From contig CAZIEY010000001.1 of assembly GCA_964538855.1 (NCBI GenBank), forward strand, positions 18,811-82,810: 64,000 nt of DNA, read 5' to 3'. This DNA comes from an uncultured Candidatus Saccharibacteria bacterium. Lineage in GTDB: Bacteria > Patescibacteriota > Minisyncoccia > Phycocordibacterales > JAACPR01. Numbering within the stretch: the first letter of the stretch is position 1; each line of letters begins with the position of its first letter. The notes under the pieces are model-generated. The model had not been told where the DNA came from. It saw nothing but the letters and a program-made list of their open reading frames with translations, and ran no database searches. Positions 8,320-51,780 of this stretch are shown here, piece after piece. A program made the translations under genes and the position numbers.

Positions 8320-8495
8320 TGCTTGACAAAAAATGTGGGTGTGATAACGTATTTTGCAGAATTACTGAGTATCACAATTTATGGTCACACTAAACGCAAT
8401 CAAACTACCGACGTGCGTTGGATGTTTGGTCGCTGCCATTATTGAGTGATATTTGGTAATAGATAGAATCCCCAAACAGGATTCGGAAAGGTCAC

Positions 8496-9038
8496 ATGAA
8501 ACGCATCATCACGACGCTTATGACCATCGCCACGGGCTTGACCGCCTACACCGTGGAACCCCAGATCATCGGCACCATCTCCGACAAGGCGACGGGCATC
8601 CAGGATCTCAAGGGCAATCCCATCGTGGCCACCGCCTCGTCCTCGGCCCAGCTCGTGCTGGCCGGCGACAAGGAATCCTACCTGGTCCACCTGTCCATTC
8701 CCCTCAACAACCTGGGCATGGAGGAGGTCGGCCTGGTCTGCAAGGACACCAAGGACGGTGGCATCGCCATCACCGGCGCCATGAACAAGGAGAAGGGTCC
8801 CACCAAAGTGGAACTCAACTCCTACACCACGGACGGCGGATTGCAGATCGTGCTGATCAAGGGCGACACCAAGCAAACGCTGACCATTCCCGACCAGGGA
8901 GTGCGGCAGCAGATGGTGACGCAGCGCAACAAGGCCAGCGGCGAACTGAAATCCAACTTCGCGATCATGCTCGACATGAAGACGAAGTCAACCGCCAGCC
9001 TCGGCCCCGCACCCGCCGGCAATACCTCCGGCACGTAA
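8496..9038 (+). CDS. Hypothetical secreted protein encoded in a strongly GC-rich (about 62% GC) island
   Basis: A signal-peptide-like N-terminus MKRIITTLMTIATGLTAYT. The SD-like GGAAAGG lies 4 nt before the ATG. Codon usage is high-GC (ATC/GGC/ACC), unlike the neighbouring genes. A terminator follows. Confidence 0.55.
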   Translation: MKRIITTLMTIATGLTAYTVEPQIIGTISDKATGIQDLKGNPIVATASSSAQLVLAGDKESYLVHLSIPLNNLGMEEVGLVCKDTKDGGIAITGAMNKEKGPTKVELNSYTTDGGLQIVLIKGDTKQTLTIPDQGVRQQMVTQRNKASGELKSNFAIMLDMKTKSTASLGPAPAGNTSGT

Positions 9039-9039
9039 A

Positions 9040-9110
9040 GCATGGAAGCTCCCCCTAGAGGAGCTGCCCATCACCCCCAACCCTTAACCGGCGAGGGGGT
9101 CTTTTTTTAT
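9040..9110 (+). terminator. Rho-independent terminator after the GC-rich gene
   Basis: A GC stem (ccccc.../gggggtc) is followed by a T7 run at about 9098-9106. Confidence 0.5.
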
Positions 9111-9129
9111 AAAAACCATGTTTTCGACT

Positions 9130-9732
9130 TTACTTACACTCCCCCTCCTCCACATTCAAAACAACTTTTTCAAATCCAGCCATTGTAAACATTGCGGTTA
9201 ATTGCTTCTCCGCATTAGCACGCGCCACCATCAAAATCCCTGCGTCACACGCGGCTTGTCGAATTGAAATTTCAGCTGCGAGACGAGCTTCGGATTCAAG
9301 TTGAGGATCGCCTTTAGTAAAAATCCCGAGCTTGCGGTCATAGACACGAGTTTTTTCGTTGTCCAAACGGCTTACCAAAATTTCAGGGCTCGGCATGTCG
9401 ATTTCGAGGCTCGTGCCAGACACCTTTACATCGCCCGCCTCCAATTTCGCCAAATCAAAACCCGCAATCACATCCGCATGTGCAATGAGCAAAATCTTGT
9501 CGCCATATAAAATGTTTTGAAACGCGTTACCTTGGACGCCACCTTCAATAATTTTCTCGAGCGTAAATGACGCAGTTTCCAAACGATTGAACGACTTAAT
9601 TTCCTTGACCACGCTCGCCTGATTGAGCAAAATTCGCGATTCAGGTCCCGCAAAAAATGAATACAATTTGTAAGCTCCAAGCAAAAGAACAACGAACACA
9701 ATTATCGAGAGAATGTTTTTAAGAATTTTCAT
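9130..9732 (-). CDS. Membrane-anchored protein, DUF4230-like (tentative)
   Basis: 200 aa with an N-terminal transmembrane segment. The overall pattern is similar to DUF4230 proteins as recalled. No enzymatic motif was seen. Confidence 0.45.
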   Translation of the reverse strand: MKILKNILSIIVFVVLLLGAYKLYSFFAGPESRILLNQASVVKEIKSFNRLETASFTLEKIIEGGVQGNAFQNILYGDKILLIAHADVIAGFDLAKLEAGDVKVSGTSLEIDMPSPEILVSRLDNEKTRVYDRKLGIFTKGDPQLESEARLAAEISIRQAACDAGILMVARANAEKQLTAMFTMAGFEKVVLNVEEGECK

Positions 9733-9825
9733 ACTTTGTATTCTATCACAATTTCTTTGACAAAGACAGTTTATTGTTTTAAGGTGTTTACCAGGCGAAC
9801 AAACTCAACCAAAGGAGAGTCAGGC

Positions 9826-10083
9826 GTGAAAAAACCGAGTCCCAACGAGCGGGCACTGAAAATCGCAGAGAGAGCATGGCTGAAGACGCAAAAAGGAAGC
9901 CCGTCCGAAAGAAGGGCTTGGGCGTGTTGGCTGCGAATCTGCGAGACTGCGGATGAAATTGAAGAGGTAGGCGTCTTTGCATCCACTGTTGAACAGCAAC
10001 AGATGGTACTCAACCGCTTGTTGCAAATCACCAGGAAGCTGATGATTGAGCGAGATCTCCGGCACAATCCCCACAAACCATAG
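9826..10083 (+). CDS. Hypothetical 85-aa protein (GTG start) in a GC-elevated segment
   Basis: A strong SD, AAAGGAGAG, lies 6 nt before the GTG at 9826. It is in frame with track ORF 9736..10083, whose listed start is a TTG. A terminator hairpin follows. Confidence 0.45.
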   Translation: MKKPSPNERALKIAERAWLKTQKGSPSERRAWACWLRICETADEIEEVGVFASTVEQQQMVLNRLLQITRKLMIERDLRHNPHKP

Positions 10084-10105
10084 CCCTTGGAAAAAGGAGG
10101 TATGA

Positions 10106-10183
10106 ATGAACGGCCCCGCACCTGCTCGGCGGGCCGTTTTCTTTACACCACGCCCCACCCGCGTTACACTAATCTGCATATGA
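10106..10183 (+). CDS. Candidate 25-aa leader uORF (MNGPAPARRAVFFTPRPTRVTLICI) overlapping the downstream transporter start by ATGA
   Basis: GGAGG at 10096-10100 lies 5 nt before the ATG at 10106. The uORF spans the terminator hairpin at 10110-10136. Its TGA stop at 10181-10183 overlaps the ATG at 10180. Confidence 0.3.
   Translation: MNGPAPARRAVFFTPRPTRVTLICI
10108..10145 (+). terminator. Intrinsic terminator/attenuator hairpin
   Basis: The stem cggccc...gggccg is followed by TTTTCTTT. Confidence 0.5.
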
Positions 10184-11217
10184 ACAAGCAAAAATTGCAA
10201 GTATATTTTTTATTAGCTGCCCTAGTCGGATCCGCTATTATCTCTTTTTTGATCTTCAAACCCTTTATCTACGCACTCATCCTCGCCGTCGTCGTTGCTA
10301 CAATTTGTGCACCAATTCATGATCGGATTTTAGCCCGCATCAAACAAAGGAACGGAATGGCGGCAATCATTTCCACCCTACTCGTTTTAGTTATTGTCAT
10401 TATCCCTCTCTCGCTTCTCGGCACGCAAATTTTTAAGGAAGCAGGTTCAGTCTACATATACCTCACAAGTGACGAAGGTTCCCACATCATCGCATCTGGC
10501 ACCAATCACACCCTAGACGTATTACGCCAAACATTTCCTGCGCTACGCGACGTCACCATTAACGTCAATCAATACGCGCGAGATTTTTTGAGTTGGCTTT
10601 TACCATATTGGGGTTCACTCTTCTCAAACATTCTAAAGATTTTAATGAGCACATTCATATTCCTCCTCGCACTCTACTATCTATTCAAAGATGGTACAAA
10701 ATTACGTTCAAGTGTTACTTTGATCAGTCCGCTCGAAGACAAATACGACGCACTCATTTTTGCAAAAGTAGGACGAGCTATCAATTCGGTCGTGAAAGGA
10801 AATCTGATTGTTGCCATGATTCAAGGCGCACTCACTTGTATTGGCTTTCTCATTTTTGGAGTCCCGAGCGCCGTGTTATGGGGTAGCGTCGCAGTAGTCA
10901 CCGCAATCATCCCTGGAGTTGGAACAGCTCTTGTCGTCATCCCTGCGCTTGTCTATCTTTTCCTCTCTGGCCACATCATCGCATTTGTCGGTCTTTTGAT
11001 TTGGGGAATTGTGGCAGTCGGATTGGTTGATAATATTCTCGGACCACACCTCGTCGAAAAAGGAATTCAAATTCATCCGTTTCTCATTCTGCTTTCGGTG
11101 CTCGGAGGTCTCGCCCTCTTTGGCCCTCTCGGATTTTTGATGGGTCCGATTATTTTAAGTCTTCTCTTTACTCTTGCACAAATTTATTCTGACATCGTGA
11201 ACAAAGAAAACATATGA
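10180..11217 (+). CDS. AI-2E family transporter (PerM/YhhT-like, UPF0118)
   Basis: Polytopic membrane protein with AI-2E-like blocks. The track ORF begins at 10087 but its first 31 codons overlie the terminator and uORF, so the ATG at 10180 (MNKQKLQVYFLL) is chosen. Confidence 0.75.
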   Translation: MNKQKLQVYFLLAALVGSAIISFLIFKPFIYALILAVVVATICAPIHDRILARIKQRNGMAAIISTLLVLVIVIIPLSLLGTQIFKEAGSVYIYLTSDEGSHIIASGTNHTLDVLRQTFPALRDVTINVNQYARDFLSWLLPYWGSLFSNILKILMSTFIFLLALYYLFKDGTKLRSSVTLISPLEDKYDALIFAKVGRAINSVVKGNLIVAMIQGALTCIGFLIFGVPSAVLWGSVAVVTAIIPGVGTALVVIPALVYLFLSGHIIAFVGLLIWGIVAVGLVDNILGPHLVEKGIQIHPFLILLSVLGGLALFGPLGFLMGPIILSLLFTLAQIYSDIVNKENI

Positions 11218-11684
11218 AAACAAACATCACATGGGTAGTTGCACTTATTGTTATTATTCTCGGATTCTGGGCTTATTCAAAAAATCAACAAACGATCGTG
11301 GTCGAAGCTCCGACTGTGACCGAAACTACTACTGAAACTGCCACATCAACCAAAGATCTTTCCGATTTGATTGTTGTGACGACACCTGTTGCAAACGCCA
11401 CATCGAGCGTCACAAACCCAATGGAAATTACCGGCAAGGCTCGCGGTTTCTGGTTTTTTGAAGCTTCATTCCCTGCAAAAATTGTTGATGCGAACGGGGC
11501 CGAGCTCGCTGTCTTCTCGATCGAAACAACTGACGAATGGATGACGACTGAATTTGTGAATTTTAGCGTGGTAGTTCCGTTTGCGACTTCTACAACAGCG
11601 ACAGGCAGCCTGATTTTACAAAAGAGCAATCCAAGCGATTTGCCGGAAAATGCGGCGGAGTTGGTGATTCCAATTGTGTTTTAA
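11214..11684 (+). CDS. Gmad2 immunoglobulin-like domain protein
   Basis: N-terminal transmembrane segment. ITGKARGFWFFEASFPAKIVDANG matches the Gmad2 Ig-like domain pattern. The start overlaps the upstream gene's stop by ATGA. Confidence 0.55.
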   Translation: MKTNITWVVALIVIILGFWAYSKNQQTIVVEAPTVTETTTETATSTKDLSDLIVVTTPVANATSSVTNPMEITGKARGFWFFEASFPAKIVDANGAELAVFSIETTDEWMTTEFVNFSVVVPFATSTTATGSLILQKSNPSDLPENAAELVIPIVF

Positions 11685-11711
11685 TGAGAGTTTTTTAGTG
11701 TTATAAAATAA

Positions 11712-11897
11712 GTAGAGCGCTGAGGTGGCCGGCGCTAGAACTGACCCAGGCCCTGACTAGGAAAAGATTGTCTCCCACGCTCGCCCAACCAGGCACCGCG
11801 TACCAATCTTTCTTAGTTGCATTGAAGGAGACGACACATCTCCTTCAATGATATAATGCATCAAGGCCCGGCGGAAATTACACCGTCGGGCCTCTTT
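11712..11897 (+). ncRNA. Candidate structured RNA in GC-elevated intergenic DNA (unclassified)
   Basis: No ORF. There is a perfect hairpin cattgaaggaga...tctccttcaatg at 11820-11850. A terminator ggcccggcgg/ccgtcgggcc with a T-run lies at about 11863-11900. A possible -10 TATAAAAT lies upstream. Confidence 0.25.
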
Positions 11898-11903
11898 ATA
11901 TTT

Positions 11904-14110: not shown

Positions 14111-14147
14111 ATGATATGTATCATAGCAAATTCACAAAAATTAAAAA

Positions 14148-14176
14148 ACCGCGGGTGCCCATTCCGCGGTTGAAAC
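14148..14176. terminator. Bidirectional terminator hairpin
   Basis: aaccgcgg...ccgcggtt flanked by A and T runs. Confidence 0.5.
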
Positions 14177-14184
14177 CAGTGCCG

Positions 14185-14724
14185 TCATTTAGCAACGGTG
14201 GTTTGAGGTACTACAACCATCTCCAATTGCTTAACCAATGCTTTGATTGCAAAACGATTGAATGTTTCGTAATATGCCTCATCACCGGAATCTTTTATAG
14301 CATGCCACACATCCATGAAACTGGGCACAATCAAGTACACTTCGGGGTACTTATCTTTCTCTAGAGTGAACTGCGTCAAAGCAAATTGATTCGTGTGACG
14401 CACTTGAGAAAAACAGTACACTATTGGGTACTCGTACACATCTCGGACGCGCCATTCCAAATCTTTGTAGTAATTGGCAATGCCACGTGAATCTTGGCCA
14501 CGCAACCTATGCAAAATCCTTACGAGATGATTTGTGGCGAATTCTCCAATGTCTTCAACCTCATAATCATCACACGTAACCTCGTAATTGAAATTGATTG
14601 TGTGAATCTCGGAGCGTATTTTTTCAATACGATCTTGTGCTTTTTCGCATTTGTGATCCCAGAACGTGAAGGTGCCAAGAATCACGACAGCCGCAAGTAG
14701 CCATTTCGTCATTGACGGGTTCAT
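14185..14724 (-). CDS. Hypothetical membrane-anchored protein
   Basis: 179 aa with an N-terminal transmembrane segment. No recognisable domain. Confidence 0.5.
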   Translation of the reverse strand: MNPSMTKWLLAAVVILGTFTFWDHKCEKAQDRIEKIRSEIHTINFNYEVTCDDYEVEDIGEFATNHLVRILHRLRGQDSRGIANYYKDLEWRVRDVYEYPIVYCFSQVRHTNQFALTQFTLEKDKYPEVYLIVPSFMDVWHAIKDSGDEAYYETFNRFAIKALVKQLEMVVVPQTTVAK

Positions 14725-14817
14725 AAAGCCTTCCTCCTGATGTAAACGGACTTATTATGCTGGACCTCCCAGCATTTCAATTCTTATATTACAACGTATT
14801 TTAATATATGGCAAATA

Positions 14818-14848
14818 CTTGACATATATTCTATATATGATACAGTAT
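14818..14848 (+). promoter_or_regulatory. Promoter TTGACA-N16/17-(TG)ATACAGT
   Basis: TTGACA at 14818. The leader is followed by an SD and a micro-ORF. Confidence 0.35.
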
Positions 14849-14881
14849 CAGGTGAGTGTACCCCCAAAAAGGAGAAATTGG

Positions 14882-14938
14882 ATGAAAATCGTCCGCGACA
14901 AGATGAGTCAACCGCTCGTGCACTTATGTTGCCCGTAG
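14882..14938 (+). CDS. Micro-ORF, 18 aa (MKIVRDKMSQPLVHLCCP)
   Basis: GGAG lies 7 nt upstream of the ATG. The ORF is immediately followed by a bidirectional terminator. It has its own promoter. Confidence 0.3.
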   Translation: MKIVRDKMSQPLVHLCCP

Positions 14939-14944
14939 CGGAAA

Positions 14945-14990
14945 AACACCCCCGTGCATGGCGCAGCGGCAGGGTGTTTTTTTACTTTTT
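14945..14990. terminator. Bidirectional intrinsic terminator shared by the micro-ORF (plus) and eno (minus)
   Basis: acaccc...gggtgt stem with A5 on the 5' side and T7 on the 3' side. Confidence 0.55.
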
Positions 14991-15008
14991 ATAAACTCCA
15001 ACAAAAGA

Positions 15009-16307
<1,299 letters not shown>

Positions 16308-18890: not shown

Positions 18891-19691
18891 CTAGCACAAT
18901 GATCCAGGGTGCTCTGCGCTCCATTTATACAACACCACCGCAGCACTCGCCGCCGCATTCAATGATTCACATTTTGGATGCATTGGAATCGATAGTAGTA
19001 CGTCGCACGCTTCTTTTGTTTTTTCGCGCAAACCGCGCCCTTCATTACCGAGCACAAATGCTGTCGCCTTTTCAAATTTTTCGGCGTTGAGACTTTGCTT
19101 TGATTCACCATCCAAACCGTATACCCAAAATCCGCGCTTTTTCAAATCTTCAATTGTGTTATTTACGTTGCCAATAGAGACGAGCGGAATTCGAAATGCC
19201 ATACCGACAGAGACTTTGACCACTGTGCCGTTTACCGGAGCTTGATTATGTTCAGGAATAAGCACCGCTGACACACCAAATGCAGCAGCCGATCGAATAA
19301 CCGCACCGACGTTATGAGGGTCTTCTACTTCGCCTAAGATTAATACCGAAGTGTCCGGTGTCACGGCGAGAGTTCCAATGAATGAATCATATGATACAAC
19401 GAGTTCGCTCGCAAGAATGCGCGCAGCCATACCTTGATGTGTTGCACCTGATGGCAAATTATTCAAAATAGTTTTCGTATCGACTGACACAATTTTGATT
19501 TTGTATTCGTGCGCAATCTTTTTAGCACGGATAATTTCATCCTTTGCATCCACGTCATTTTCAATCAGAAAAATTTCTTTGACTGATTTTGGTCGGTGAA
19601 TTAACGCTTCACTTACCGCATGCTTTCCGTATATAAAAATATTTTTGAGGTCGCGTGCCATACAATAATTATAATTTAAGTTCTTCGTCAA
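18891..19691 (-). CDS. rlmB: 23S rRNA (guanosine-2'-O)-methyltransferase, SpoU/TrmH family (RlmB-like)
   Basis: SpoU motifs are present (EDPHNVGAVIRSA, FVLGNEGRGL, ESLNAA). Confidence 0.8.
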   Translation of the reverse strand: MTKNLNYNYCMARDLKNIFIYGKHAVSEALIHRPKSVKEIFLIENDVDAKDEIIRAKKIAHEYKIKIVSVDTKTILNNLPSGATHQGMAARILASELVVSYDSFIGTLAVTPDTSVLILGEVEDPHNVGAVIRSAAAFGVSAVLIPEHNQAPVNGTVVKVSVGMAFRIPLVSIGNVNNTIEDLKKRGFWVYGLDGESKQSLNAEKFEKATAFVLGNEGRGLREKTKEACDVLLSIPMHPKCESLNAAASAAVVLYKWSAEHPGSLC

Positions 19692-23252: not shown

Positions 23253-23345
23253 CTACAAATCAAATAAACTTGAGTTAAAGTGCTTCACGCGTTTAATCTT
23301 TAGGTTCATATTTGAGATTTATTCACGTAGTATTAAAGCATAAAA

Positions 23346-23549
23346 ATGAAACAAGGAACAATTGTAAGAATTATGGATAAGGGTTACGGTTTTATCAAAA
23401 CTGACGGAATGGAAAAAGATCTTTTCTTCCACTCTAACGAATTACAAAACGCTCGATTCGACGACCTTAAAGAAGGTATGAAAGTTGAATTCGAAGTTGC
23501 TGACGGCCAAAAAGGTCCACAAGCTGTAAAAGTTACTGTCCTTAGCTAA
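23346..23549 (+). CDS. Cold-shock protein (CspA family)
   Basis: 67 aa. GYGFI and FFH RNA-binding motifs are present. Confidence 0.95.
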   Translation: MKQGTIVRIMDKGYGFIKTDGMEKDLFFHSNELQNARFDDLKEGMKVEFEVADGQKGPQAVKVTVLS

Positions 23550-23561
23550 CTCTACAAACAA

Positions 23562-23596
23562 GAAGCCGCTCGAAAGGGCGGTTTTTTGTTTGTCCT
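23562..23596 (+). terminator. Terminator after csp
   Basis: A short GC stem ccgc...gcgg followed by T6. Confidence 0.45.
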
Positions 23597-23673
23597 CATG
23601 AAAATACAAAAGCCCGCTGCGACGAACTTTTGTATTTGTTCGGCGAGGGCGGGCTTAAAGACTGAAATCATCG

Positions 23674-23934
23674 TCAGGGTTGGGTTCCTTCCGATTCCTC
23701 CAGATGTGCGTTGTTTGCTCGGCAAACTGCCGGGACATCAATTCGGGCGACAGTGATAATTTCCGACTGCATTGACGGCATTCGACTCAACCGCTTACCG
23801 TGTTCTTCGGCGAGCCTATCGCACGCTTCCCGGTCTTTCCCTTCGAAGGTTTTCACTTCGTAGAGTTGACTTTGCTCACCATGCCGCCTGTTGTCAAAAC
23901 GGTACTCGTATCTCACATTGTCATCGGTAGGCAT
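23674..23934 (-). CDS. Hypothetical 86-aa protein in a GC-elevated segment
   Basis: SD GGAGAA lies 6 nt before the ATG. A long imperfect terminator hairpin follows at 23600-23650. Confidence 0.45.
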   Translation of the reverse strand: MPTDDNVRYEYRFDNRRHGEQSQLYEVKTFEGKDREACDRLAEEHGKRLSRMPSMQSEIITVARIDVPAVCRANNAHLEESEGTQP

Positions 23935-24064
23935 CTGGACTTCTCCGTGAGGGGTTTAGTCATAACGACAGCCTAAGGTGCTGTTCAAATGTACAATAAC
24001 ACTTTGTGTATCAAATGTAAATAATTCCCATATTTTGACTACTTCAACCAACAAATTTTGTATT

Positions 24065-32226: not shown

Positions 32227-32252
32227 TTGACTAACCTGTGGAGAAATCTTGA

Positions 32253-32283
32253 CGTTTTTTGTGATTGGTGTATATTAGTCAGG
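32253..32283 (+). promoter_or_regulatory. Promoter TTGACG-16-TATATT driving the YGK micro-gene
   Basis: TTGACG at 32253. It is preceded by TGTGGAGA 4 nt upstream. Confidence 0.4.
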
Positions 32284-32393
32284 TACAGCACCGATGCTGA
32301 GTCGTTCTTTGCAGAGATTGAGCCTTGCTCGACCTCTATTTTGAATGCTTGGCAAAAGTGCGATGTGAAACGAACCCCCACACGGAGATGACG

Positions 32394-32468
32394 ATGAACA
32401 TCCAGTACAGCTACGGCAAGTACGGCAAGTACGGCAAGTACGGTCGCAACACCGCCGCCGGCTACTAA
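32394..32468 (+). CDS. 24-aa Tyr/Gly/Lys-repeat peptide MNIQYSYGKYGKYGKYGRNTAAGY (GC-rich micro-gene)
   Basis: GGAG at 32384-32387 lies 6 nt before the ATG at 32394. It contains three exact TACGGCAAG repeats. A terminator follows at 32506-32545. Confidence 0.4.
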   Translation: MNIQYSYGKYGKYGKYGRNTAAGY

Positions 32469-32505
32469 GCTGGCAAACCGTGAAGGTCGCAAAGACCATC
32501 ACGGT

Positions 32506-32545
32506 CAAGCCTCGGACGCGTACCCACGCGCCCGAGGCTTTTACT
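32506..32545 (+). terminator. Intrinsic terminator after the YGK peptide gene
   Basis: agcctcgg...ccgaggct followed by TTTT. Confidence 0.55.
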
Positions 32546-32585
32546 ATATTTTATTTATACTTTACTTTTTTGTTATACTATCCCT

Positions 32586-33745: not shown

Positions 33746-34711
33746 TTATTTAATCCGCTTCTTAAACTCTTCAATCATCGGCACCTGCTCGGGTTCAGTT
33801 CCATAAATTTTAGCGAGTTCAAGCGTCGTCCAGTCTGCGAGAATAATTGAGTTAAATATCTTTTCCATTTCGCTGTCACCTTCGAGGAAGAGCGAAGTCA
33901 CACCCATGCCCTTTTCCTGATAGAGTGCCTCTGTCGTTTTCATGCGCAATTCGATGCGCTGCGCATCTTTTGAATCATGAAGAAAAATAAAGTGCGTCGA
34001 TACCGAGAGGGCGCGGGTCGCGTCGACGTAATCAAAACCTTGCATTTCATTGTGATTTAGTTCTGGGAAACAATTGTAGAACGAAGGCACCTTACCAGTT
34101 TCATTCATCTTGATTTTCCAAATGTATGCAAGAGCGCGGTTTTGTAGTGAACTGTAAATGACCGGCATTTTACCCGAGAGTGTTTTTGCGATGTCACGAC
34201 CCAGGTCGTGCAACGCTTCTGGTTGTAATACGGAACGCATACTTTCTAATTCAAGAATTAATTCCGGAGCGCAGAGCGTAGCAAGCGCGAGTGACGCAAA
34301 GCCGAGCGCGGCGCGCGGCTGAATACCAGTGTCAGGAATGACGATGTACGGCAAGCCGTTTTCCTTGGCAAATTCAAGCAACTTTCCACCGGTTGTAATG
34401 ACTGCAACATCGTAACCTTTTGAATATGCGGCGTCGGCGAATTCGAGAGTCTCTTCGGTGTTGCCGGAATAAGAGCTCGCAATCAAAAGTGCATTTTGCA
34501 AAAATACGTCATCGTACGCCGGCAACCCATAGTCGCGATGAATATATAAATTGATGCCTGGCTTAAAAATATGAAAAAGTCCTCCAGCTAAATGCGAGCC
34601 GCCCATACCTCCGAGCACGAATGCTTCGTAATCATCTTTTAATCGGTCCCGATTTTGAATCTCGGGCTTGAAATCGAACTGTTCTGCGAATTTTAATATT
34701 GATTCTTCCAT
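33746..34711 (-). CDS. Bifunctional phosphoglucose/phosphomannose isomerase (SIS-domain PGI/PMI family)
   Basis: GGMGGSHLAG and SYSGNTEET SIS blocks. The start is set at the ATG at 34711 (MEESILKF), preceded by TATAAT-6 nt in a leaderless arrangement. The track start at 34729 is also possible. Confidence 0.8.
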   Translation of the reverse strand: MEESILKFAEQFDFKPEIQNRDRLKDDYEAFVLGGMGGSHLAGGLFHIFKPGINLYIHRDYGLPAYDDVFLQNALLIASSYSGNTEETLEFADAAYSKGYDVAVITTGGKLLEFAKENGLPYIVIPDTGIQPRAALGFASLALATLCAPELILELESMRSVLQPEALHDLGRDIAKTLSGKMPVIYSSLQNRALAYIWKIKMNETGKVPSFYNCFPELNHNEMQGFDYVDATRALSVSTHFIFLHDSKDAQRIELRMKTTEALYQEKGMGVTSLFLEGDSEMEKIFNSIILADWTTLELAKIYGTEPEQVPMIEEFKKRIK

Positions 34712-34741
34712 GAGGATATTATAGCGCATTTCTGCGCGGCG

Positions 34742-36948: not shown

Positions 36949-37848
36949 TTATTTCTCCCCCACATCATGCCCACCAAACTGATTTCGCAACGCCGAGACG
37001 ACTTTGCCAGTGTAGGTTGGATTGCCGGTTGATTTTTTGCGGAAGTCGAGAGAACCTTTGATGATCGGAGTTTTGACGCCGAACTTACGCGCCGCTTTGA
37101 CGGTCCACTCGCCTTCGCCACTGTGAGAAACTTCGCCAGAAATACCGTTCAATTCAGTTGTATTTTTTGCAAACGCCTGACCGAGCCAACCGACGAGACG
37201 TGATTCGATCACCGACCCGTGATTATAAATTCGCGCCACCTCCGCGAGATCAAAATTAAATTCGGACTTTTTGAGCACTTCGAATCCCTCACCAATCGCC
37301 TGCATCATGCCGTATTCGATGCCGTTGTGCACCATTTTTGCAAAGTGACCCGCGCCCGACGCGCCCATGTACGCAAAGCCCTGCGCAACCGACAAATCCG
37401 CAAAGAGCGGAGTCAATTCGTCGTAGAGAGCCCGTTCGCCACCAATCATGAGACACGCCCCGTTGCGCGCTCCACCCGGACCGCCCGAAGTACCGATGTC
37501 CATAAAGCGAATGCCTTTGCGAGTCAATTTTTTGGCACGCTTGACCGTTTCGGTGTACGGCGAGTTTCCTCCGTCAATCAAAATGTCGCCCTTCGACAAG
37601 AATGGCGCGACCCGTGCAATCATTTCATCGACTGCTTGCCATGGCACCATGAGCCAGACAATTTTGCGCTCGTTGCCGAACTTTTCAAAAATTTCTGCGA
37701 TGCTGTGCGCTGCGATTGCCCCGCGAGTCGCGAGCTGGTCCGCCTTTTCCGGACTGCGATTCCACGCAACCACCTCGTGCCCCTTTTCCAAAAGCCGCTC
37801 CGCCTGCCCCATCCCCATTTTCCCAAGTCCAATGTATGCAATTTTCAT
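36949..37848 (-). CDS. gnd: 6-phosphogluconate dehydrogenase (short, YqeC-like form)
   Basis: MKIAYIGLGKMG Rossmann motif plus 6PGDH-like blocks. The start is moved to the ATG at 37848, which has TATAAT 6 nt upstream. The track start at 37896 adds 16 residues. Confidence 0.8.
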   Translation of the reverse strand: MKIAYIGLGKMGMGQAERLLEKGHEVVAWNRSPEKADQLATRGAIAAHSIAEIFEKFGNERKIVWLMVPWQAVDEMIARVAPFLSKGDILIDGGNSPYTETVKRAKKLTRKGIRFMDIGTSGGPGGARNGACLMIGGERALYDELTPLFADLSVAQGFAYMGASGAGHFAKMVHNGIEYGMMQAIGEGFEVLKKSEFNFDLAEVARIYNHGSVIESRLVGWLGQAFAKNTTELNGISGEVSHSGEGEWTVKAARKFGVKTPIIKGSLDFRKKSTGNPTYTGKVVSALRNQFGGHDVGEK

Positions 37849-37883
37849 GAGGAGATTATAGCATTTTTGGGTTGAGGGATAAG

Positions 37884-37930
37884 GGTTTGTGGACACTTGA
37901 CTATACGTGTATATTATGCTATTATATATT
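37884..37930 (+). repeat. Promoter module R1, GGGTTTGTGGACACTTGACT-N17-TATTAT (copy 1 of 2)
   Basis: TTGACT at 37897-37902. It is nearly identical to the sequence at 39919-39963. Confidence 0.6.
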
Positions 37931-38060
37931 CATAGCCGAATCTTCAAATTCGGTGGACCACCCGAGAATCTGCTCAGGATTCTCATCATGTATCAATCGA
38001 ATATCTCGGTTGTGATGATCCCATTATGGGGAGCGGTAAATCTCTCGAAAGGAGATAAAA

Positions 38061-38408
38061 ATGAGCAACAAGGTAAGAGGAGTCATCGAAAACGCCATCG
38101 GGACAATGCAACTGCGACAAGTTGCATATCAATTCCGAGGAAGGCCCCGTTCGGAACTCCAAGATTTCGTCTTCAACGCAGTCCTTGCGACGACAGTCGC
38201 TCAGATGACTGGAGAAAAAATGGGGGAGCTCTTAGTATACCCTCTATCCCAGTACGAAAAGAGCCCTAGCGTAGGTAAGTTCAATCAGTACGTCACCTAC
38301 GTTGAAGGCGACTACCGTGGCTTCTTGAGGCGCGCGACCGCATTTTATCTCACGTTCAAAATCATGGAAATCATCCGTCCGATGACTGGAGACAATCCCG
38401 AGTCTTAA
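38061..38408 (+). CDS. Hypothetical 115-aa protein driven by promoter module R1
   Basis: GGAG lies 6 nt before the ATG. The 5' leader has two perfect hairpins (ccgaatcttcaaattcgg and gagaatctgctcaggattctc). A terminator lies at 38418-38465. Confidence 0.5.
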   Translation: MSNKVRGVIENAIGTMQLRQVAYQFRGRPRSELQDFVFNAVLATTVAQMTGEKMGELLVYPLSQYEKSPSVGKFNQYVTYVEGDYRGFLRRATAFYLTFKIMEIIRPMTGDNPES

Positions 38409-38417
38409 CTGGCTCAC

Positions 38418-38465
38418 CCACCCGCAAACGGAAAGCACTTTGCTTTCCAGCGGGTGTTTTCTTTT
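38418..38465 (+). terminator. Intrinsic terminator
   Basis: acccgc...gcgggt stem with an internal hairpin, followed by TTTTCTTTT. Confidence 0.5.
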
Positions 38466-38473
38466 GTCTAAAG

Positions 38474-39883
38474 TTACTTGAGTCTTTTCACTGCTTCCAC
38501 CTCACTCCCCCTCTCATACACGCCGAGCTTCACTTTTTTCACGGCTTCCATCACTTTTGAAATCAGGCGCCACTGCAAAGCGACTTCTTCGGTGCTCGTG
38601 AACAATGTTTGATCGCCGAGAATGCAGTCGTAGAGAACTTTTTCATACGCGTCGGACAGCATCGACATGCCGGACTCATATTTGAATGAGAGCGTTTTTT
38701 CTTCGAGCCCAAATGCGAGCCCAGGAGTTTTCTTCCAAAACGAAACGGAGATATTTTCTTCGGGCTGAACGTTGATAGTGATTGTGTTGCCATAGTGACA
38801 AATGTCGTCGACTGGGCAGACGCAACTTTCTTCCTCGCGGAATGTGATTTTTATTTGCACCAGATTTTTAGAAAGCGCCTTGCCATAGGTAATCAAAAAC
38901 GGCACGTTTTTCCAGCGGCGGTTTGCGACGTTCAATTTGAGCTCGAAAAATGTTTCGGTCGTCGAGTCTGGTTTAACGCCGGCTTCGTTCGTGTAGCCTG
39001 CATATTGTGCCACACGAATAAATTCGTCGGGAGTGCGGCTGGCTGGGACAATGTCCGCCAAAACTCGTGCGCGCGCTGTGCGGATTTTGTCGGCGGTGAT
39101 TCCCTGTGGATCTTCCATCGCGATCAAGGCGAGCATTTGCAAAATGTGATTTTGTCCGACGTCACGGAGGGCCCCGATTGGATCATAAAAATTCCCACGC
39201 TCTGACACCGTGTTTGTCTCGAGAAAATTAATTTCGACGCGATCAATCAAATCACGATTCCAAATCGGCCCAAAAATCGGATTCGCAAAACGAAACGCGA
39301 TGATGTTTTGGAGAGCTTCTTTTGCTAAATAATGATCAATGCGGAACACTTGGTTTTCATCGAACAATTTCCCGAGCAATTTATCGAGCCGAAGCGCACC
39401 TTCTGGGTCGCTGCCGAATGGTTTTTCTACGAGCACGCGTGTCCACGTCCCCTCTGCATGTTTGTCGCACGGCGTCACCAAATTCGCCTCGTCGATGTGC
39501 GTGAAGACCGGCTCATACAAATGCGGTGGCACTGCGAGATAGAAGAGTTTGTTCGTGCAGACGCCGATTCGTTCGTCCGTCTTTTTCAAGTACGCACCGA
39601 GATTGTCGTAACTCTCAGTTGTGTTGATGTCGCCTTGGACGTAGCGGAAATTTTCAACAAAAGTTTTCATAAGACTCGCGTCGATGTTTGGTCGCTTTTT
39701 CAAAAGCGAATCAGTCACGAATTTTTGATAGTCGGCGTCCGACAGCGGTTTACGCGAAAATCCAACAATAGTCACTGTGCTCGGCAAAAGATGCTTGGAA
39801 TATAAATCAAAAAGCGCCGAAAAAATCTTGTTCTGCGCGAGGTCGCCTGTGCCGCCGAAGATGACGAATGTGATGGGTTTCAT
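38474..39883 (-). CDS. zwf: Glucose-6-phosphate dehydrogenase
   Basis: N-terminal FVIFGGTGDLA NADP motif, plus the RIDHYLGKE-like block (DHYLAKE). The start is at the ATG at 39883 (MKPITF), with TACAAT 8 nt upstream. The track ORF extends to 39994. Confidence 0.88.
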   Translation of the reverse strand: MKPITFVIFGGTGDLAQNKIFSALFDLYSKHLLPSTVTIVGFSRKPLSDADYQKFVTDSLLKKRPNIDASLMKTFVENFRYVQGDINTTESYDNLGAYLKKTDERIGVCTNKLFYLAVPPHLYEPVFTHIDEANLVTPCDKHAEGTWTRVLVEKPFGSDPEGALRLDKLLGKLFDENQVFRIDHYLAKEALQNIIAFRFANPIFGPIWNRDLIDRVEINFLETNTVSERGNFYDPIGALRDVGQNHILQMLALIAMEDPQGITADKIRTARARVLADIVPASRTPDEFIRVAQYAGYTNEAGVKPDSTTETFFELKLNVANRRWKNVPFLITYGKALSKNLVQIKITFREEESCVCPVDDICHYGNTITINVQPEENISVSFWKKTPGLAFGLEEKTLSFKYESGMSMLSDAYEKVLYDCILGDQTLFTSTEEVALQWRLISKVMEAVKKVKLGVYERGSEVEAVKRLK

Positions 39884-39918
39884 ATGGGAATATTGTAGCA
39901 TTTTGATGCTTATTTTTA

Positions 39919-39963
39919 AGGGTTTATGGACACTTGACTTTATAGATATATATGCTATTATAA
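39919..39963 (+). repeat. Promoter module R2, GGGTTTATGGACACTTGACT-N16-TATTAT (copy 2 of 2)
   Basis: TTGACT at 39934-39939. It is back-to-back with the zwf promoter. Confidence 0.6.
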
Positions 39964-40032
39964 GAACAAGGGAGTTTCGCTTACTCCACAACAAGGTCCA
40001 CAGACCGCAAAAGCGAGAAAGGAGAATAAACC

Positions 40033-40152
40033 ATGAAAAGACTCATCTGCGCTGTTGCTATCATCGCCACAATGGCGAGTTGCAGCGCCCCGCGCGGGGA
40101 GAAAATCCCCGGGATGGTGTGGGAGAAATCCCATGTCCCGTCGATGCCGTAG
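40033..40152 (+). CDS. 39-aa putative secreted or lipo-peptide (MKRLICAVAIIATMASC...) driven by module R2
   Basis: AAAGGAG SD lies 8 nt before the ATG. A signal-peptide-like N-terminus has a Cys after the hydrophobic core. GC-rich. A double-hairpin terminator follows at 40153-40206. Confidence 0.35.
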   Translation: MKRLICAVAIIATMASCSAPRGEKIPGMVWEKSHVPSMP

Positions 40153-40206
40153 AACCCCCACGGGGGTCTTACGTCAGCGCCCTGATCACTCGGGGCGTTT
40201 TTTATT
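40153..40206 (+). terminator. Intrinsic terminator (two GC hairpins plus T6)
   Basis: cccccacggggg and gcgccc...ggggcg followed by TTTTTT. Confidence 0.5.
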
Positions 40207-40223
40207 TAAAATACAAGAATCAA

Positions 40224-40973
40224 TTACTTTTCCTTCCTCGTCTCCAACACCCGCGTCATACAATACGCACAATGTTCGCACGTTTTGCTGCGCGCCGGAA
40301 TTTTTGGAGAGTCCAATAGTTTTTTAATATCGACGATTATTGCTTCAACCCAATCAGGATTACCTGTGTACGGATGAAGTGTCAATTCAAAATCGAGCCG
40401 CTCTGCGAATTCATCTCGATTCACGAGCGCGTTTGCATACACAAAATATCCGGTGTCGGCGACCTTGAAACCTTTTTGTCGCAACAACCATTGATAAATT
40501 TCCATTTGGCGTTTGTAGCCGTCTTTCCAGGTGTCGTCCATATTAACCCCCTCTTCTTTGCTGGTGGCTTTGTAATCCACGATGATGAGCTCGCCCGCGG
40601 GATTCACCCACAAATCATCGACTGCGCCCGACACGACCAAGCCGGTCGGTTTATGCACAATTTGCACGCCTTCGAAATTTTCGCGCCACGTCGCCAATTC
40701 TTTGTGAGCAAATGGTACTGCATCGACACCGTGCTCAACCATTATTGGATGAGGTTTTTGCGCCGCGCGATATGTATCGAATTCTTTTTTCAATAACATG
40801 TCGACAGCATTGTTGATATTAAACGGAGGCATCGACGGACGGCGAATTCCCATTTTATTATCCAAATAGAAACAGCGCGGACATTCCAAAAACATCGCGA
40901 TTTTCGAGCGACTCAATTTCCAATTCGAACCGCCATAATTCCAGCCGGGGTGGCGCTTTTTGTATTCTTGCAT
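40224..40973 (-). CDS. PD-(D/E)XK nuclease superfamily protein, Cas4-like, with a four-Cys cluster
   Basis: N-terminal CPRCFY and C-terminal CEHCAYC Cys pairs, as in Cas4/AddB Fe-S nucleases. IVDYK fits D-x(n)-(D/E)xK. Confidence 0.65.
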   Translation of the reverse strand: MQEYKKRHPGWNYGGSNWKLSRSKIAMFLECPRCFYLDNKMGIRRPSMPPFNINNAVDMLLKKEFDTYRAAQKPHPIMVEHGVDAVPFAHKELATWRENFEGVQIVHKPTGLVVSGAVDDLWVNPAGELIIVDYKATSKEEGVNMDDTWKDGYKRQMEIYQWLLRQKGFKVADTGYFVYANALVNRDEFAERLDFELTLHPYTGNPDWVEAIIVDIKKLLDSPKIPARSKTCEHCAYCMTRVLETRKEK

Positions 40974-43488: not shown

Positions 43489-43508
43489 AGTTTATTTATT
43501 ATACACAA

Positions 43509-44249: not shown

Positions 44250-44375
44250 GAGTCGAGTGTAAACGTAACAGAGCAAAATAGCAAGCCGAATCTTCATGTT
44301 TTCTTTAGGACTTCTTCATTATTTCTTGATACTTTTTTAAATGGTTCTTCATAACGAATCCGTATACTATGTGGC

Positions 44376-45746: not shown

Positions 45747-45747
45747 T

Positions 45748-48029: not shown

Positions 48030-48053
48030 AAATGTCGTGAATTAATTTCTGAA

Positions 48054-49670: not shown

Positions 49671-49849
49671 ATGTTTGTATATTTAAAGGCAAGAGCCTTG
49701 ATAACTCGTCCGATCTGTTATTAATGATATGCGTATTTCGCACGATCAGTCGTTTCTCCGAGTTTCAAGATCACCTTCTAAATAAGGGCCAAAACCAATG
49801 AGATTTAGTTATTGCTGGTTATAATAGCGCGAAAGAGGTGGTTTGTCAA

Positions 49850-50809
49850 CTAACCCCGTTTTAAGAACTTCCTATTCAACCACAACGTCCCATACCCTAC
49901 CGCAATCACCACAAAGCCAATAAAAATGAGGGCGACTGGCCAACCAATAGAATCCGCAAAATATTCCACAGTCAATTTTCCGATATGAATCATGAGAAAA
50001 AGTGCCGAAAGTAAAAGCACTCCTCGACTCTTCAAAAAGATACTTCCGTAAAAGCCCGCAAACAGTACGGCAATGTAGAGAACATCAAAAAATCCGCCGA
50101 AAGAAATTCCGGCAAGTAAAATAGAGAATGCACCAACTGCATATAAAATACCGGCCACTGCATTATTCTCTACACTAATAACCTCACTGTCTTTTGTAGC
50201 AAAACCACGTGCCATTAAAATATAGGCGGCGCCAGCAACAATCGCGGCCCATTTCAAAATATCTCCATCGAACAGACTCGATTCAAATGTTTTTGCAAGC
50301 ACTGCATAATATGCCCACGACCCGAATCCAACAGTGATAAGCACTAAAATATTTTTCCGAGTTGCCCAATATGCGACTCCATATACAACCGCCAGTATGA
50401 ATGCGAGCACTACATTAGTAGTTAACGACATTGTCATATCTGCCTCGTCGATTAATACCAAAGATCCAATTGGAGCGAGTACTGCCGAAATGAAAAACAT
50501 AACTTGAGACAATTTATTTTGATGCGGAGCGCACAATACAAAACCGGCAACAAATGTTGCAAGTGAAATTCCAAGTGTCACTGCGATGCGACCGACAAAA
50601 CCAATCTCGTTCCAATTCTGAGCAATCAAAATAATCACACCAACAATGGCAATAATGGCGCCAATTGTATACAGCACACTCACCATTTTATGAGGAGCAC
50701 TGTCGATATCTGCGCTAGACGTCGACGTTAGTGCGACTAACTCCGATTTTGTGATCAAGCCTTCCTGTAATTGCTGTTTCAATTCTGCGAGTAATTGTTG
50801 TTTTTCCAT
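49850..50809 (-). CDS. Polytopic membrane protein, DUF2157-like (tentative)
   Basis: 319 aa, about 9 transmembrane segments, with an N-terminal soluble helix. Confidence 0.5.
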   Translation of the reverse strand: MEKQQLLAELKQQLQEGLITKSELVALTSTSSADIDSAPHKMVSVLYTIGAIIAIVGVIILIAQNWNEIGFVGRIAVTLGISLATFVAGFVLCAPHQNKLSQVMFFISAVLAPIGSLVLIDEADMTMSLTTNVVLAFILAVVYGVAYWATRKNILVLITVGFGSWAYYAVLAKTFESSLFDGDILKWAAIVAGAAYILMARGFATKDSEVISVENNAVAGILYAVGAFSILLAGISFGGFFDVLYIAVLFAGFYGSIFLKSRGVLLLSALFLMIHIGKLTVEYFADSIGWPVALIFIGFVVIAVGYGTLWLNRKFLKRG

Positions 50810-50813
50810 GTTG

Positions 50814-51341
50814 TTATTTTATCCAGCCAATAAACATCATGTCGTCGCTCCAGCGATCAGCTGTTGGAATTGCAATTTTCCTGTCACCGTTGCCTTTTGA
50901 AATTACATAACCACGGCTCGAGTCATCTGAACCAAAAATTTCAAAAATACCGTTGTGTCCATATTCGTAACGTACTACATATCCATCCGGCGAACTTGGA
51001 CCAGCATCAAGTGAGAGTTTAGACGCTTCTTCAAATGAAATTTTACGAGAAGTGTCTTTTTCTACATCGTAGATAAACAAATCTGGATCATATGTAGTTG
51101 CATTCGTGTCAGAGCGAAGTACGGCTTTTTTCAAGGTCAAAGTATCATTCTCTACAATATATTGATTTGGCACCATTTCAATATAGTAGCCATTGTAATG
51201 AGGCTGCGAACGCATTGCGTATACAAAATCGTGTTCTGGTTGAATCGAAGCTCTTGCGGTAAAAATGTAAATTGAAATTGCGATGATGAAAATAACTGGT
51301 AATGCGATGCCGATAATGATTGGTATGTGTTGCTTGTTCAT
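50814..51341 (-). CDS. Membrane-anchored protein, possibly a GDYXXLXY-domain partner of DUF2157 (tentative)
   Basis: The start is set at MNKQHIPIIIG (an N-terminal transmembrane segment). A DGYVVRYEY segment loosely resembles the GDYxxLxY motif. The track ORF extends to 51497. Confidence 0.4.
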   Translation of the reverse strand: MNKQHIPIIIGIALPVIFIIAISIYIFTARASIQPEHDFVYAMRSQPHYNGYYIEMVPNQYIVENDTLTLKKAVLRSDTNATTYDPDLFIYDVEKDTSRKISFEEASKLSLDAGPSSPDGYVVRYEYGHNGIFEIFGSDDSSRGYVISKGNGDRKIAIPTADRWSDDMMFIGWIK

Positions 51342-51451
51342 GCTCTTTATTTTAGCATGTTTTAAGAATTGAAAAGCCCGATGAGACAAAAAAGTTAAAT
51401 CAACAGCACCACACTGAATTTTATGAATATGAAATACAAAAATAAGTGGTA

Positions 51452-51502
51452 TAAAAAAATCCTCGGCATTACTACCGAGGACTCTTCCGCAAACCACGGA
51501 AG
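51452..51502 (-). terminator. Terminator (two hairpins) after the small minus-strand gene
   Basis: cttccg...cggaag and cctcggta...tgccgagg followed by T7 on the minus strand. Confidence 0.5.
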
Positions 51503-51506
51503 ATAT

Positions 51507-51680
51507 TCAGCCGATGGCGATGTCCACCAAGATCATTGCTCCGCACAACGCTCCAAGGGCCATCATCGGCAACGACTTCACCGCTTTCCACAGCGTGACC
51601 TCAGGGTCGACGCGAGGGGCGGCTCGATAGCGCATGAGTCCTAGCGCTATCGCATAAACTCCCAGACAAAGAGCAGTCAT
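51507..51680 (-). CDS. 57-aa hydrophobic peptide (MTALCLGVYAIALGLMRYRAAPRVDPEVTLWKAVKSLPMMALGALCGAMILVDIAIG), GC-rich micro-gene
   Basis: GGAGG lies 5 nt before the ATG. A TTGACA-17-ATAATA promoter is upstream and a terminator downstream. It is absent from the ORF track because it is under 60 aa. Confidence 0.4.
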   Translation of the reverse strand: MTALCLGVYAIALGLMRYRAAPRVDPEVTLWKAVKSLPMMALGALCGAMILVDIAIG

Positions 51681-51780
51681 AAACACCTCCGGTTACCTCT
51701 ACTCCAATAATTTTGAAGTTTATGAGGTTGATAATATTATATATCATATAGCGATATTGTCAAGTATCTCAATGAGTTGC

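Follow-up and report, generated by a model that had tools for sequence, protein, structure and literature searches.

Self-contained small-gene cassettes with Shine–Dalgarno leaders among putatively leaderless core genes of a Parcubacteria-like genome

Small genes that carry expression signals of their own are scattered through a 64,000-nucleotide (nt) stretch of contig CAZIEY010000001.1 (assembly GCA_964538855.1, positions 18,811 to 82,810), which was analysed in full and is here called the window. Seven of these genes, named s1 to s7, form self-contained transcription units, each with a promoter-like site (weak in s2) and a hairpin/U-run terminator. Our favoured reading, which we consider probable though well short of settled, is that the core of this genome is leaderless, that the small units are fast-turnover accessory cassettes, leadered and led by Shine–Dalgarno (SD) sequences, at intergenic hotspots, and that their high guanine-plus-cytosine (GC) content at third codon positions (GC3) is held in place. 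A first-pass annotation had proposed that the small genes are self-contained expression cassettes unlike the leaderless core and that they came from a high-GC donor or host. Both the architecture of the units and their contrast with the resident genes agree with the first part of that proposal; the second part fares badly, as described below. The seven units and two others of the same build, with strand in brackets and promoter matches counted out of 12 positions, are as follows.

8442-9109 (+): s1 cassette; promoter TTGAGT-16-TAGAAT at 8442-8469 (9/12), leader of ~20 nt, weak SD GAAAGG; open reading frame (ORF) 8496-9038 (+) of 180 amino acids (aa) with a Sec-type signal peptide; terminator hairpin 9073-9100 and T-run.
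9757-10145 (+): s2 cassette; TTGACA at 9757 with a weak -10, SD AAGGAG at 9812; ORF 9826-10083 (+) with GTG start, 85 aa, basic, soluble; terminator hairpin 10108-10139.
14111-14814 (-): additional leadered SD gene; promoter 14814-14786, SD AGGAGG, orphan ORF 14724-14185 of 179 aa.
14819-14985 (+): additional cassette, absent from the first-pass annotation; TTGACA-16-TACAGT (TG), SD AAAGGAG; 18-codon ORF MKIVRDKMSQPLVHLCCP at 14882-14938 (+); terminator 14946-14977 and T-run.
23600-24021 (-): s3 cassette; promoter TTTACA-17-TATTGT at 24021-23993 (9/12, TG), SD GGAGAA; ORF 23934-23674 (-), 86 aa, acidic/basic, soluble; terminator 23657-23611 and U-run.
32249-32558 (+): s4 cassette; promoter TTGACG-16-TATATT at 32249-32276 (10/12), leader of ~110 nt, SD GGAGAT; ORF MNIQYSYGKYGKYGKYGRNTAAGY at 32394-32468 (+), 24 codons, GC3 0.92; hairpins 32477-32505 and 32507-32540 with U-run.
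37897-38466 (+): s5 cassette; promoter TTGACT-17-TATTAT at 37897-37925 (10/12, TG), leader of ~130 nt, SD AAGGAG; ORF 38061-38408 (+), 115 aa, predicted helical; terminator 38419-38456 and T-run.
39934-40206 (+): s6 cassette; promoter TTGACT-16-TATTAT at 39934-39961 (10/12, TG), leader of ~65 nt, SD AAGGAG; ORF 40033-40152 (+), 39 aa, with a lipoprotein-type signal ending ...TMASC; terminator 40176-40199 and T-run.
51453-51763 (-): s7 cassette; promoter TTGACA-16-TATAAT at 51763-51736 (12/12), SD GGAGGT; ORF 51680-51507 (-), 57 aa, two hydrophobic helices; terminator 51482-51460 and T7.

All seven ORFs are intact at the coordinates that the first-pass annotation gave, and its description of them as small and GC-rich is borne out (0.49-0.61 against 0.42). 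From s1 to s7 the GC content is 0.611, 0.519, 0.521, 0.560, 0.494, 0.583 and 0.580, in a window of 0.421 (42.1%). These values lie at the 96.9th to 100th percentile of segments of the same length elsewhere in the window, and GC3 is 0.54-0.92 against 0.39 ± 0.07 in resident genes (n = 60), so the anomaly in GC and codon composition that had been put forward for checking is present. For s2, s3 and s5, GC is raised only moderately. Resident gnd (0.53) and zwf (0.47) are likewise GC-elevated; these two and the PDDEXK and PGI genes show the elevation both in the window and in the related locus L003, which means that GC alone is not diagnostic of foreignness here.

The expression signals are more uniform than the composition. 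A sigma70-like -35/-10 pair lies upstream in the correct orientation of s1, s3, s4, s5, s6 and s7 (9/12 to 12/12); a promoter had been claimed for every gene, and only in s2 does the claim falter, with a perfect TTGACA followed by nothing better than a weak TAAGGT as -10. Promoter-like matches are not enriched over the window as a whole; by our estimate, 5 of the ~33 matches of at least 10/12 lie within 140 nt upstream of eight small ORFs, where ~0.3 would be expected. The GGAG-type SD at 5-8 nt, likewise claimed for all, was found as a GGAG/GAGG core at that distance before the start in 6/7 ORFs, and s1 has only GAAAGG. A terminator, consisting of a stable GC-rich hairpin and then a U-run, is present in all seven units, just as described earlier. 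An unbiased scan with SD hexamers returned the same seven units plus the two further ones listed above, and the window holds at least eight or nine such units. The 179-aa orphan unit (14185-14724) has the same build at ordinary GC (0.42) and belongs to no Pfam family; a T-run just upstream of the iPGM promoter is consistent with a terminator for it (the hairpin was not folded). Given cassettes of normal or moderate GC on the one hand and GC-rich resident genes on the other, the class is defined better by its architecture than by its GC content.

Resident genes start in another way. An SD core precedes 7/63 of them, which is the control rate (5-10% in controls), and a TANNNT box lies 4-10 nt before the ATG in 33/63, against 0-10% at internal control positions. 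Upstream regions of the internal genes of the atp operon are A-rich and without an SD. The earlier statement that flanking genes mostly lack an SD and sit behind a TAYAAT box therefore holds, with SD use at background and about half of the genes having a -10 box near the ATG. For SD use in cassettes (6/7) against residents (7/63), Fisher's test gives p = 8e-5, a value inflated by the probable selection of the ORFs, by the earlier reader, partly on such signals.

The junctions holding s1, s2, s4, s5, s6 and s7 were compared with those of relatives, namely L003 and L004 (zwf 97% aa identity; flanks 77-93% nt identical to the window), L009 (zwf 85% aa), L005 and L006 (zwf 72-73% aa) and L011 (zwf 57% aa, from a 33%-GC genome). 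For the atp/DUF4230/perM junction the relatives were L007 and L008 (flanks 78-86% nt), of which L008 was recovered with a degenerate DNA pattern, designed by hand, that encodes the conserved peptide MFTMAGFEK. At the s2 junction, window positions 9780-10137 are represented by ~9 nt in L008, with DUF4230 and perM conserved beside it and flanks 74-86% identical. Between lexA and the leaderless mscL promoter, L003, L004 and L011 lack the whole 330-nt s4 unit, and L003 has no counterpart of the ~480-nt s7 unit between the PAP2 gene and the gene next to it. At the s6 slot, gaps of only 3-36 nt are left in L006, L009 and L011; L005 has the promoter and then a different 60-aa ORF with two transmembrane helices; and the closest relative, L003 (9950-10080), keeps a promoter, TTGACT-N17-TATAAT, followed by ~75 nt with a terminator hairpin and no ORF, which could be a small RNA (sRNA) or the scar of a lost cassette. 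These comparisons support clean presence/absence differences at the same junctions for s2, s4, s6 and s7, and an accessory nature for most of the cassettes.

The s5 and s1 slots behave differently. In L009, the promoter, 130-nt leader, SD and first three codons of the s5 slot are 88-90% identical to the window, and similarity then collapses; the ORF that follows has 112 aa, a GC3 of 0.70 and 19% identity to s5 over 63 aa, and the two products have in common only MSN..., ...YV[TS]Y.E... and R.MT..ES*. In L003, an unrelated 127-aa ORF stands behind the same promoter. L006 has no s5-slot ORF, a 36-nt gap between PDDEXK and zwf, and an NYN-domain gene between zwf and gnd, and L011 has a compact PDDEXK-zwf-gnd-pgl-pgi operon with neither s5 nor s6, lexA-mscL being compact there too. 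For s1, a HMMER scan of 1.84 billion representatives yielded one true homologue, P0128 (E = 7e-14, 36% identity, full length), and none outside this syntenic protein of a related Parcubacteria genome. It is encoded on the 1-kb contig L007 between an atpZ-like gene upstream and the C-terminus of DUF4230 downstream, that is, in the same slot as s1, and its GC3 is 0.93. The flanks of the slot are 90-95% identical between L007 and L008, and the L008 slot holds an SD-led ORF of 62% GC and GC3 0.86 with a similar signal peptide and no BLASTP similarity to P0128.

In these alignments the s1 and s5 slots are conserved: promoter and leader are kept, and the ORFs behind them are hyperdiverged or unrelated. 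The prediction that relatives would lack the small genes at these junctions is thus right for s2, s4, s6 and s7 and wrong for s1, and probably for s5, where the slot holds a diverged homologue. A homologue of similar composition at the same locus had itself been named as evidence against horizontal acquisition, and s1 has one in a related genome, syntenic and with the same extreme GC3. The relatives also have private cassettes of the same build that are absent from the window: 19204-19497 (between ASCH and mscL) and 11610-11993 in L003, and 2815-3162 and 5021-5437 in L011, the latter two led by an SD and shifted in GC, in a genome of 33% GC with otherwise leaderless genes. The location of the cassettes between conserved genes, which had also been pointed out, is confirmed by flanks comprising the atp operon, perM, gnd/zwf, lexA/mscL, cspA and an ABC transporter.

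The main competing explanation is recent acquisition of each cassette from a donor of high GC, for instance an actinobacterial or proteobacterial host or partner, whose promoter, SD, terminator and codon usage it would still keep. A gene pool of higher-GC, SD-using bacteria would account simply for the joint signal: the cassettes are atypical in GC and GC3, their use of SDs is alien to the residents, close relatives lack four of them, and the SD-led orphans of the 33%-GC relative are shifted upward in GC as well. We nevertheless find this origin unlikely. No homologue came to light in any library, phage, plasmid or viral collection: in Pfam, PHROGs, NCBIfam and PADLOC none of s1 to s7 had a match at or near a family threshold (four weak matches, E 0.01-0.045, fell far short of the curated cut-offs), and phage genomes, plasmids and IMG/VR contigs gave no match. 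The homology search proposed earlier thus produced no homologue from a donor taxon, only the syntenic Parcubacteria homologue of s1 with the same GC3 and, for s2 to s7, no library match. Within the clade, moreover, promoters and leaders are conserved while the ORFs change.

Codon positions speak against a donor more directly. GC at first, second and third positions (GC1/GC2/GC3) is 0.52/0.43/0.88 in s1 and 0.36/0.40/0.92 in s4, against a resident mean of 0.51/0.35/0.39, and the GC excess of these two genes is purely synonymous. Muto and Osawa reportedly found in 1987 that the codon positions correlate in GC. In the Acidimicrobiia locus L002, a 70%-GC control, the ORFs average 0.73/0.49/0.89, so the resident-like GC1 and GC2 of s1 and s4, next to a GC1 of ~0.73 in L002, form a pattern unlike that of a fresh actinobacterial or proteobacterial import. 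The three alleles of the s1 slot agree in this property, with third-position C at 0.55-0.60, third-position G at 0.30-0.34, GC3 at 0.86-0.93 and resident-like GC1 and GC2, even though their proteins are at most 36% identical and their flanks have diverged by 5-22%. A decaying relic should have eroded over such a distance and fresh imports would need three independent insertions in one slot, so in-place maintenance is the more economical explanation, and we infer that the GC3 bias of these alleles has been maintained in place. An origin from a high-GC donor or host is therefore unsupported overall and contradicted for s1 and s4, and a local GC excess is no proof of transfer from such a donor.

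A second alternative is that some or all of the units are small regulatory RNAs or cis-regulatory leaders, their ORFs being by-products of GC-rich, stop-poor sequence. GC-rich segments in an AT-rich genome do open frames on both strands, the s6 slot of L003 has a promoter and then only a short hairpin terminator without an ORF, the s5 leader is far better conserved than the s5 ORF, and other GC-rich intergenic segments look RNA-like, for example the T-box-like leader at 54540-54692. Set against this are the strong SD 5-8 nt before the start in 6/7 units, found also in the cassettes of the relatives, and the codon-position signal of s1 and s4 (GC3 0.88-0.92 against GC1/GC2 of 0.36-0.52). The full-length protein homologue of s1 and the canonical signal, lipobox or transmembrane features encoded by s1, s6 and s7 point the same way, and no Rfam family matched the units even at E ≤ 1, apart from a 24-bit ncS54 overlap on the s6 terminator, at chance level. 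We regard an RNA-only explanation as quite improbable. Transfer RNA (tRNA), transfer-messenger RNA and Rfam explanations of the GC-rich segments were rejected.

As to the products, s1 reads as a real coding sequence on the strength of its codon-position profile and its full-length syntenic homologue, and the ORFs in general are probably translated. The predicted s1 product is a Sec-type secreted protein with ~155 aa in its mature form; its AlphaFold2 model shows a beta-meander and a C-terminal helix at a predicted local distance difference test (pLDDT) score of 61, and Foldseek against the PDB gave no match below E = 0.3, only weak PH-like ones. The s5 prediction is a helical model of low confidence. 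The predicted s4 product is a Tyr-Gly-Lys repeat peptide, (YGK)3, and the other predicted products are a 39-aa lipoprotein precursor (s6), a 57-aa two-helix membrane peptide (s7) and three small soluble proteins. A role at the surface, in host interaction or in competition, under diversifying selection, is plausible. A type I toxin–antitoxin pair combines a hydrophobic peptide of fewer than 60 aa with an overlapping antisense RNA; the peptide half of that description suits s7 (57 aa) and the 60-aa ORF of L005 and not the other cassettes.

An assembly artefact, in which chimeric joins or contaminating high-GC reads would have ended up inside a low-GC contig, might be suspected from the abrupt local GC jumps, and is for practical purposes negligible: the NCBI record is a 388-kb contig, syntenic resident genes lie on both sides of the cassettes, GC-rich genes occupy the same s1 slot in related genomes from other samples, and an independent Logan assembly (SRR13208906) agrees with the window at 100% identity over a stretch of 19,732 nt in which s1 and s2 lie, and contains s3 as well. 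The worry about mis-assembly raised earlier is thus removed, a chimera being excluded by the identity over 19.7 kb. The organism appears to be a bacterium of the candidate phyla radiation (CPR), within Parcubacteria, to go by the best-hit names of zwf homologues, not by a phylogeny; the zwf product has thousands of homologues, and the named ones at ~50% identity are Candidatus Paceibacteria, Parcubacteria group, Taylorbacteria and Patescibacteria group. At 90% identity, every protein cluster of the organism has a single member, those of ATP synthase beta and enolase included. The NCBI protein set includes only s1 and s5 of the seven, which indicates that standard annotation misses most of this gene class; s2, s3 and s7 are known only from Logan gene calls, and s4 and s6 are in no protein collection.

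Under our favoured reading, of a leaderless core with accessory cassettes, conserved genes would either be transcribed as leaderless messenger RNAs (mRNAs), their ATG following 5-9 nt behind an extended -10 box, or lie inside operons without an SD. Scattered among them would be monocistronic units, each with a sigma70 promoter, a 5' untranslated region of 20-130 nt, a GGAG-type SD, an ORF of 18-180 codons and a Rho-independent terminator. The junctions that took them up would have been compact in the ancestor. Members of the clade would gain, lose or replace such units, and recombination through the conserved flanks and the promoter/leader is the most probable route; homology ends sharply within conserved flanks, in s5 where the start codon lies and in s1 and s6 a little downstream of the promoter, and these sharp boundaries, the one line of evidence for the mechanism, suggest allele exchange by recombination. 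The products would be lineage-specific, probably act at the cell surface or in interaction with hosts or competitors, and evolve under diversifying selection. The GC excess would be mainly a GC3 property of the class; either selection acting on the mRNA or the codons, or GC-biased conversion at recombination hotspots, would keep it in place.

Several points weigh against this reading. The searches with s2 to s7 were weak, and a concatenated query against a 5.8-billion-protein index failed its positive control, so a donor could have been missed. No homologue in the libraries or in the phage, plasmid and viral collections supports coding for s2, s3, s4, s6 and s7. The differences between genomes could be deletions in the relatives instead of insertions here, although the outgroups L011 (zwf, gnd and lexA/mscL) and L006 (PDDEXK-zwf) favour insertion for s4 to s6. 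No recombination signature, target-site duplication or mobility gene was found; a search for shared repeats and target-site duplications at the cassette borders returned only a doubtful TTTAC microhomology at s2, and in a repeat search of the window no repeat family links the cassettes. The cause of the GC3 bias is itself unexplained: eno, atpA and atpD, which are presumably well expressed, do not have it, and ordinary translational selection is therefore no obvious cause. Selection at the mRNA level and GC-biased conversion at recombination hotspots are candidates.

Going further, one can propose that the cell runs two expression regimes, an AT-rich, leaderless, SD-less core and a leadered, SD-dependent, GC3-enriched, hypervariable set of genes for secreted, membrane and small proteins in fixed intergenic slots, whose GC3 is actively maintained in place across deeply diverged alleles. 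We offer this stronger form tentatively and think it may well be wrong. If it were true, the loci would be a dedicated and rapidly exchanging system of 'interaction genes' of an episymbiont, and their GC3 of ~0.9, next to normal GC1 and GC2, would be held by selection for mRNA stability, a specialised mode of translation or GC-biased conversion.

Two of the cassettes, s5 and s6, adjoin a repeated promoter module. The copy beside s5, which is oriented opposite to zwf and gnd, is laid out as follows.

37847-37925 (both strands): divergent promoter module upstream of gnd; leaderless gnd promoter TGCTATAAT on the - strand and TTGACT-17-TATTAT on the + strand.

Upstream of zwf, 39884-39961 is a paralogous copy, and positions 37847-37914 and 39884-39951 are 72% identical over 68 nt. 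A 22-mer inside the module, AAGGGTTTRTGGACACTTGACT, occurs twice where 0 occurrences are expected. Each copy of this bidirectional module faces a variable ORF, and the module is conserved in L003, L005 and L009. The 68 nt could be both the -35 of the divergent cassette promoters and a shared operator for oxidative pentose-phosphate genes. In the window and in L003 (L003 9194-13034), gnd, zwf and PDDEXK (36949-40973) and bact-PGI (33746-34729) have a GC3 of 0.48-0.59. Between the two genomes gnd and zwf are 91-93% nt identical, and most neighbouring genes 77-83%, which suggests recent exchange of the block or unusually strong constraint.

Downstream of s2, the window offers one more SD-led frame.

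10106-10183 (+): 25-codon micro-ORF MNGPAPARRAVFFTPRPTRVTLICI, behind the strongest SD of the window, AAAGGAGGT, at 10093.

This frame (ATG 10106) traverses the s2 terminator and stops at the leaderless start of perM; the true perM start is probably ATG 10180, not TTG 10087 or ATG 10102 as chosen by gene callers. The neighbours of s3 are a MacB-type ABC transporter operon on one side and convergent cspA (23346-23549) on the other. On the + strand, 23322-23590, cspA and its surroundings, scores below threshold against the cspA thermoregulator model (23.5 bits, E = 0.052), and the cspA start codon comes after an AT-rich, SD-less leader of ~12 nt.

Neither tRNA genes nor, at gathering thresholds, any Rfam family occur in the window. 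A GC-rich leader at 54540-54692 (-), which precedes the gene of a class II aminoacyl-tRNA synthetase (53051-54463; Pfam tRNA-synt_2), matches the full T-box model below threshold (26.8 bits, E = 0.055; gathering score 93). With a hairpin resembling a terminator at its end, it is probably a divergent T-box riboswitch. Perfect 12/12 promoters, TTGACA-16-TATAAT, at 466-493 and 1338-1365 open the segments 466-710 (+) and 1338-1606 (+), which run for ~210-240 nt without a convincing ORF to terminators at ~690-705 and 1580-1604; they are candidate unannotated sRNAs without an Rfam match. A 48%-GC intergenic segment at 11685-11903, between the Gmad2 and DNA-alkylation-repair genes, has a strong terminator (11864-11893) and a palindrome at ~11825-11845 (TGAAGGAGA...TCTCCTTCA). 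Two copies of an intergenic palindromic element of ~60-100 nt (AAACTCCCAATTTTAAAAGTCTGGTTGAGCATCA...), with arms 81-97% complementary, lie 6.3 kb apart at 52925-53062 and 59368-59490 and could be either a repeat resembling miniature inverted-repeat transposable elements or a shared bidirectional terminator. The gene at 54722-55939 (-) has at least 15 copies of internal repeats with a 21-nt period and encodes an acidic heptad-repeat protein with PG_binding_1 and DUF4398, its GC1 of 0.65 and GC3 of 0.25 being odd. Finally, 57532-58407 and 58417-59307 (-) are tandem paralogues, 70-74% identical over blocks of 150-225 nt at a spacing of 879 nt, with an unusually high GC2 of 0.45-0.47.

Patescibacteria (CPR) have tiny genomes, and their interactions with hosts and competitors are largely obscure. 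An arrangement of promoter, leader, SD, micro-ORF and terminator among leaderless genes would give such genomes a marker of fast-turnover accessory genes that can be read from sequence. The window is also a test case for the coexistence of SD-dependent and leaderless initiation in one cell, and for what holds synonymous sites at ~90% GC in a 42%-GC genome.

Among known systems, mixed leaderless and SD genomes are represented by group C of GeneMarkS-2, for example Mycobacterium and Deinococcus (PMC6028130). As in that group, a Pribnow box lies 6-8 nt before operon-first genes and a leadered, SD-dependent minority class coexists with them. In group C, however, the remaining and internal operon genes carry a ribosome-binding site, whereas here the residents have only background SD use (7/63) and SDs are essentially confined to small accessory cassettes. 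The GeneMarkS-2 paper (PMC6028130) makes no mention of Parcubacteria. Our literature search found no paper linking Patescibacteria or Parcubacteria with leaderless initiation.

ORFans, the recently acquired atypical genes that Daubin and Ochman are said to have described in 2004, resemble the cassettes in being short, fast-evolving, restricted in distribution and atypical in composition. Usually, atypical or ORFan genes exceed their genome in AT content (PMC6028130). The cassettes, in contrast, are GC-enriched with resident-like GC1 and GC2. They also resemble pangenome hotspots at which one pair of core genes encloses, from strain to strain, different or unrelated ORFs or none at all, as at the s1, s5 and s6 slots. 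Oliveira et al. reportedly described accessory-gene integration hotspots, or 'flexible genomic islets', between core genes in 2017. Unlike those, each islet here is one micro-gene of 75-545 bp behind a conserved promoter/leader, and no integrase, tRNA or repeat marks the cassette sites. Integron gene cassettes, promoterless ORFs that end in an attC site and form an array beside intI/attI, were rejected as a model: every unit here is driven by a promoter of its own, and the units stand one by one, spread over 43 kb; the repeat search gave no shared 3' repeat, and no search aimed at intI was made.

The nearest parallel comes from phages. The moron of Juhala and Hendrix has its own promoter and terminator and a deviant GC content, and the genes on either side of it lie next to each other in relatives (PMC3594210). 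The cassettes are likewise independent transcription units of deviant GC, placed between genes adjacent in relatives (s2, s4, s6 and s7, and s5 relative to L011), and their products are often small membrane, lipo- or secreted proteins. They differ from morons in that the flanks are housekeeping genes, not prophage, with no PHROG, phage or IMG/VR match, and in that the GC deviation is upward and, for the most extreme cassettes, confined to synonymous sites. With these differences in mind, the moron may be taken as the closest functional analogue, and the cassettes as moron-like accessory genes.

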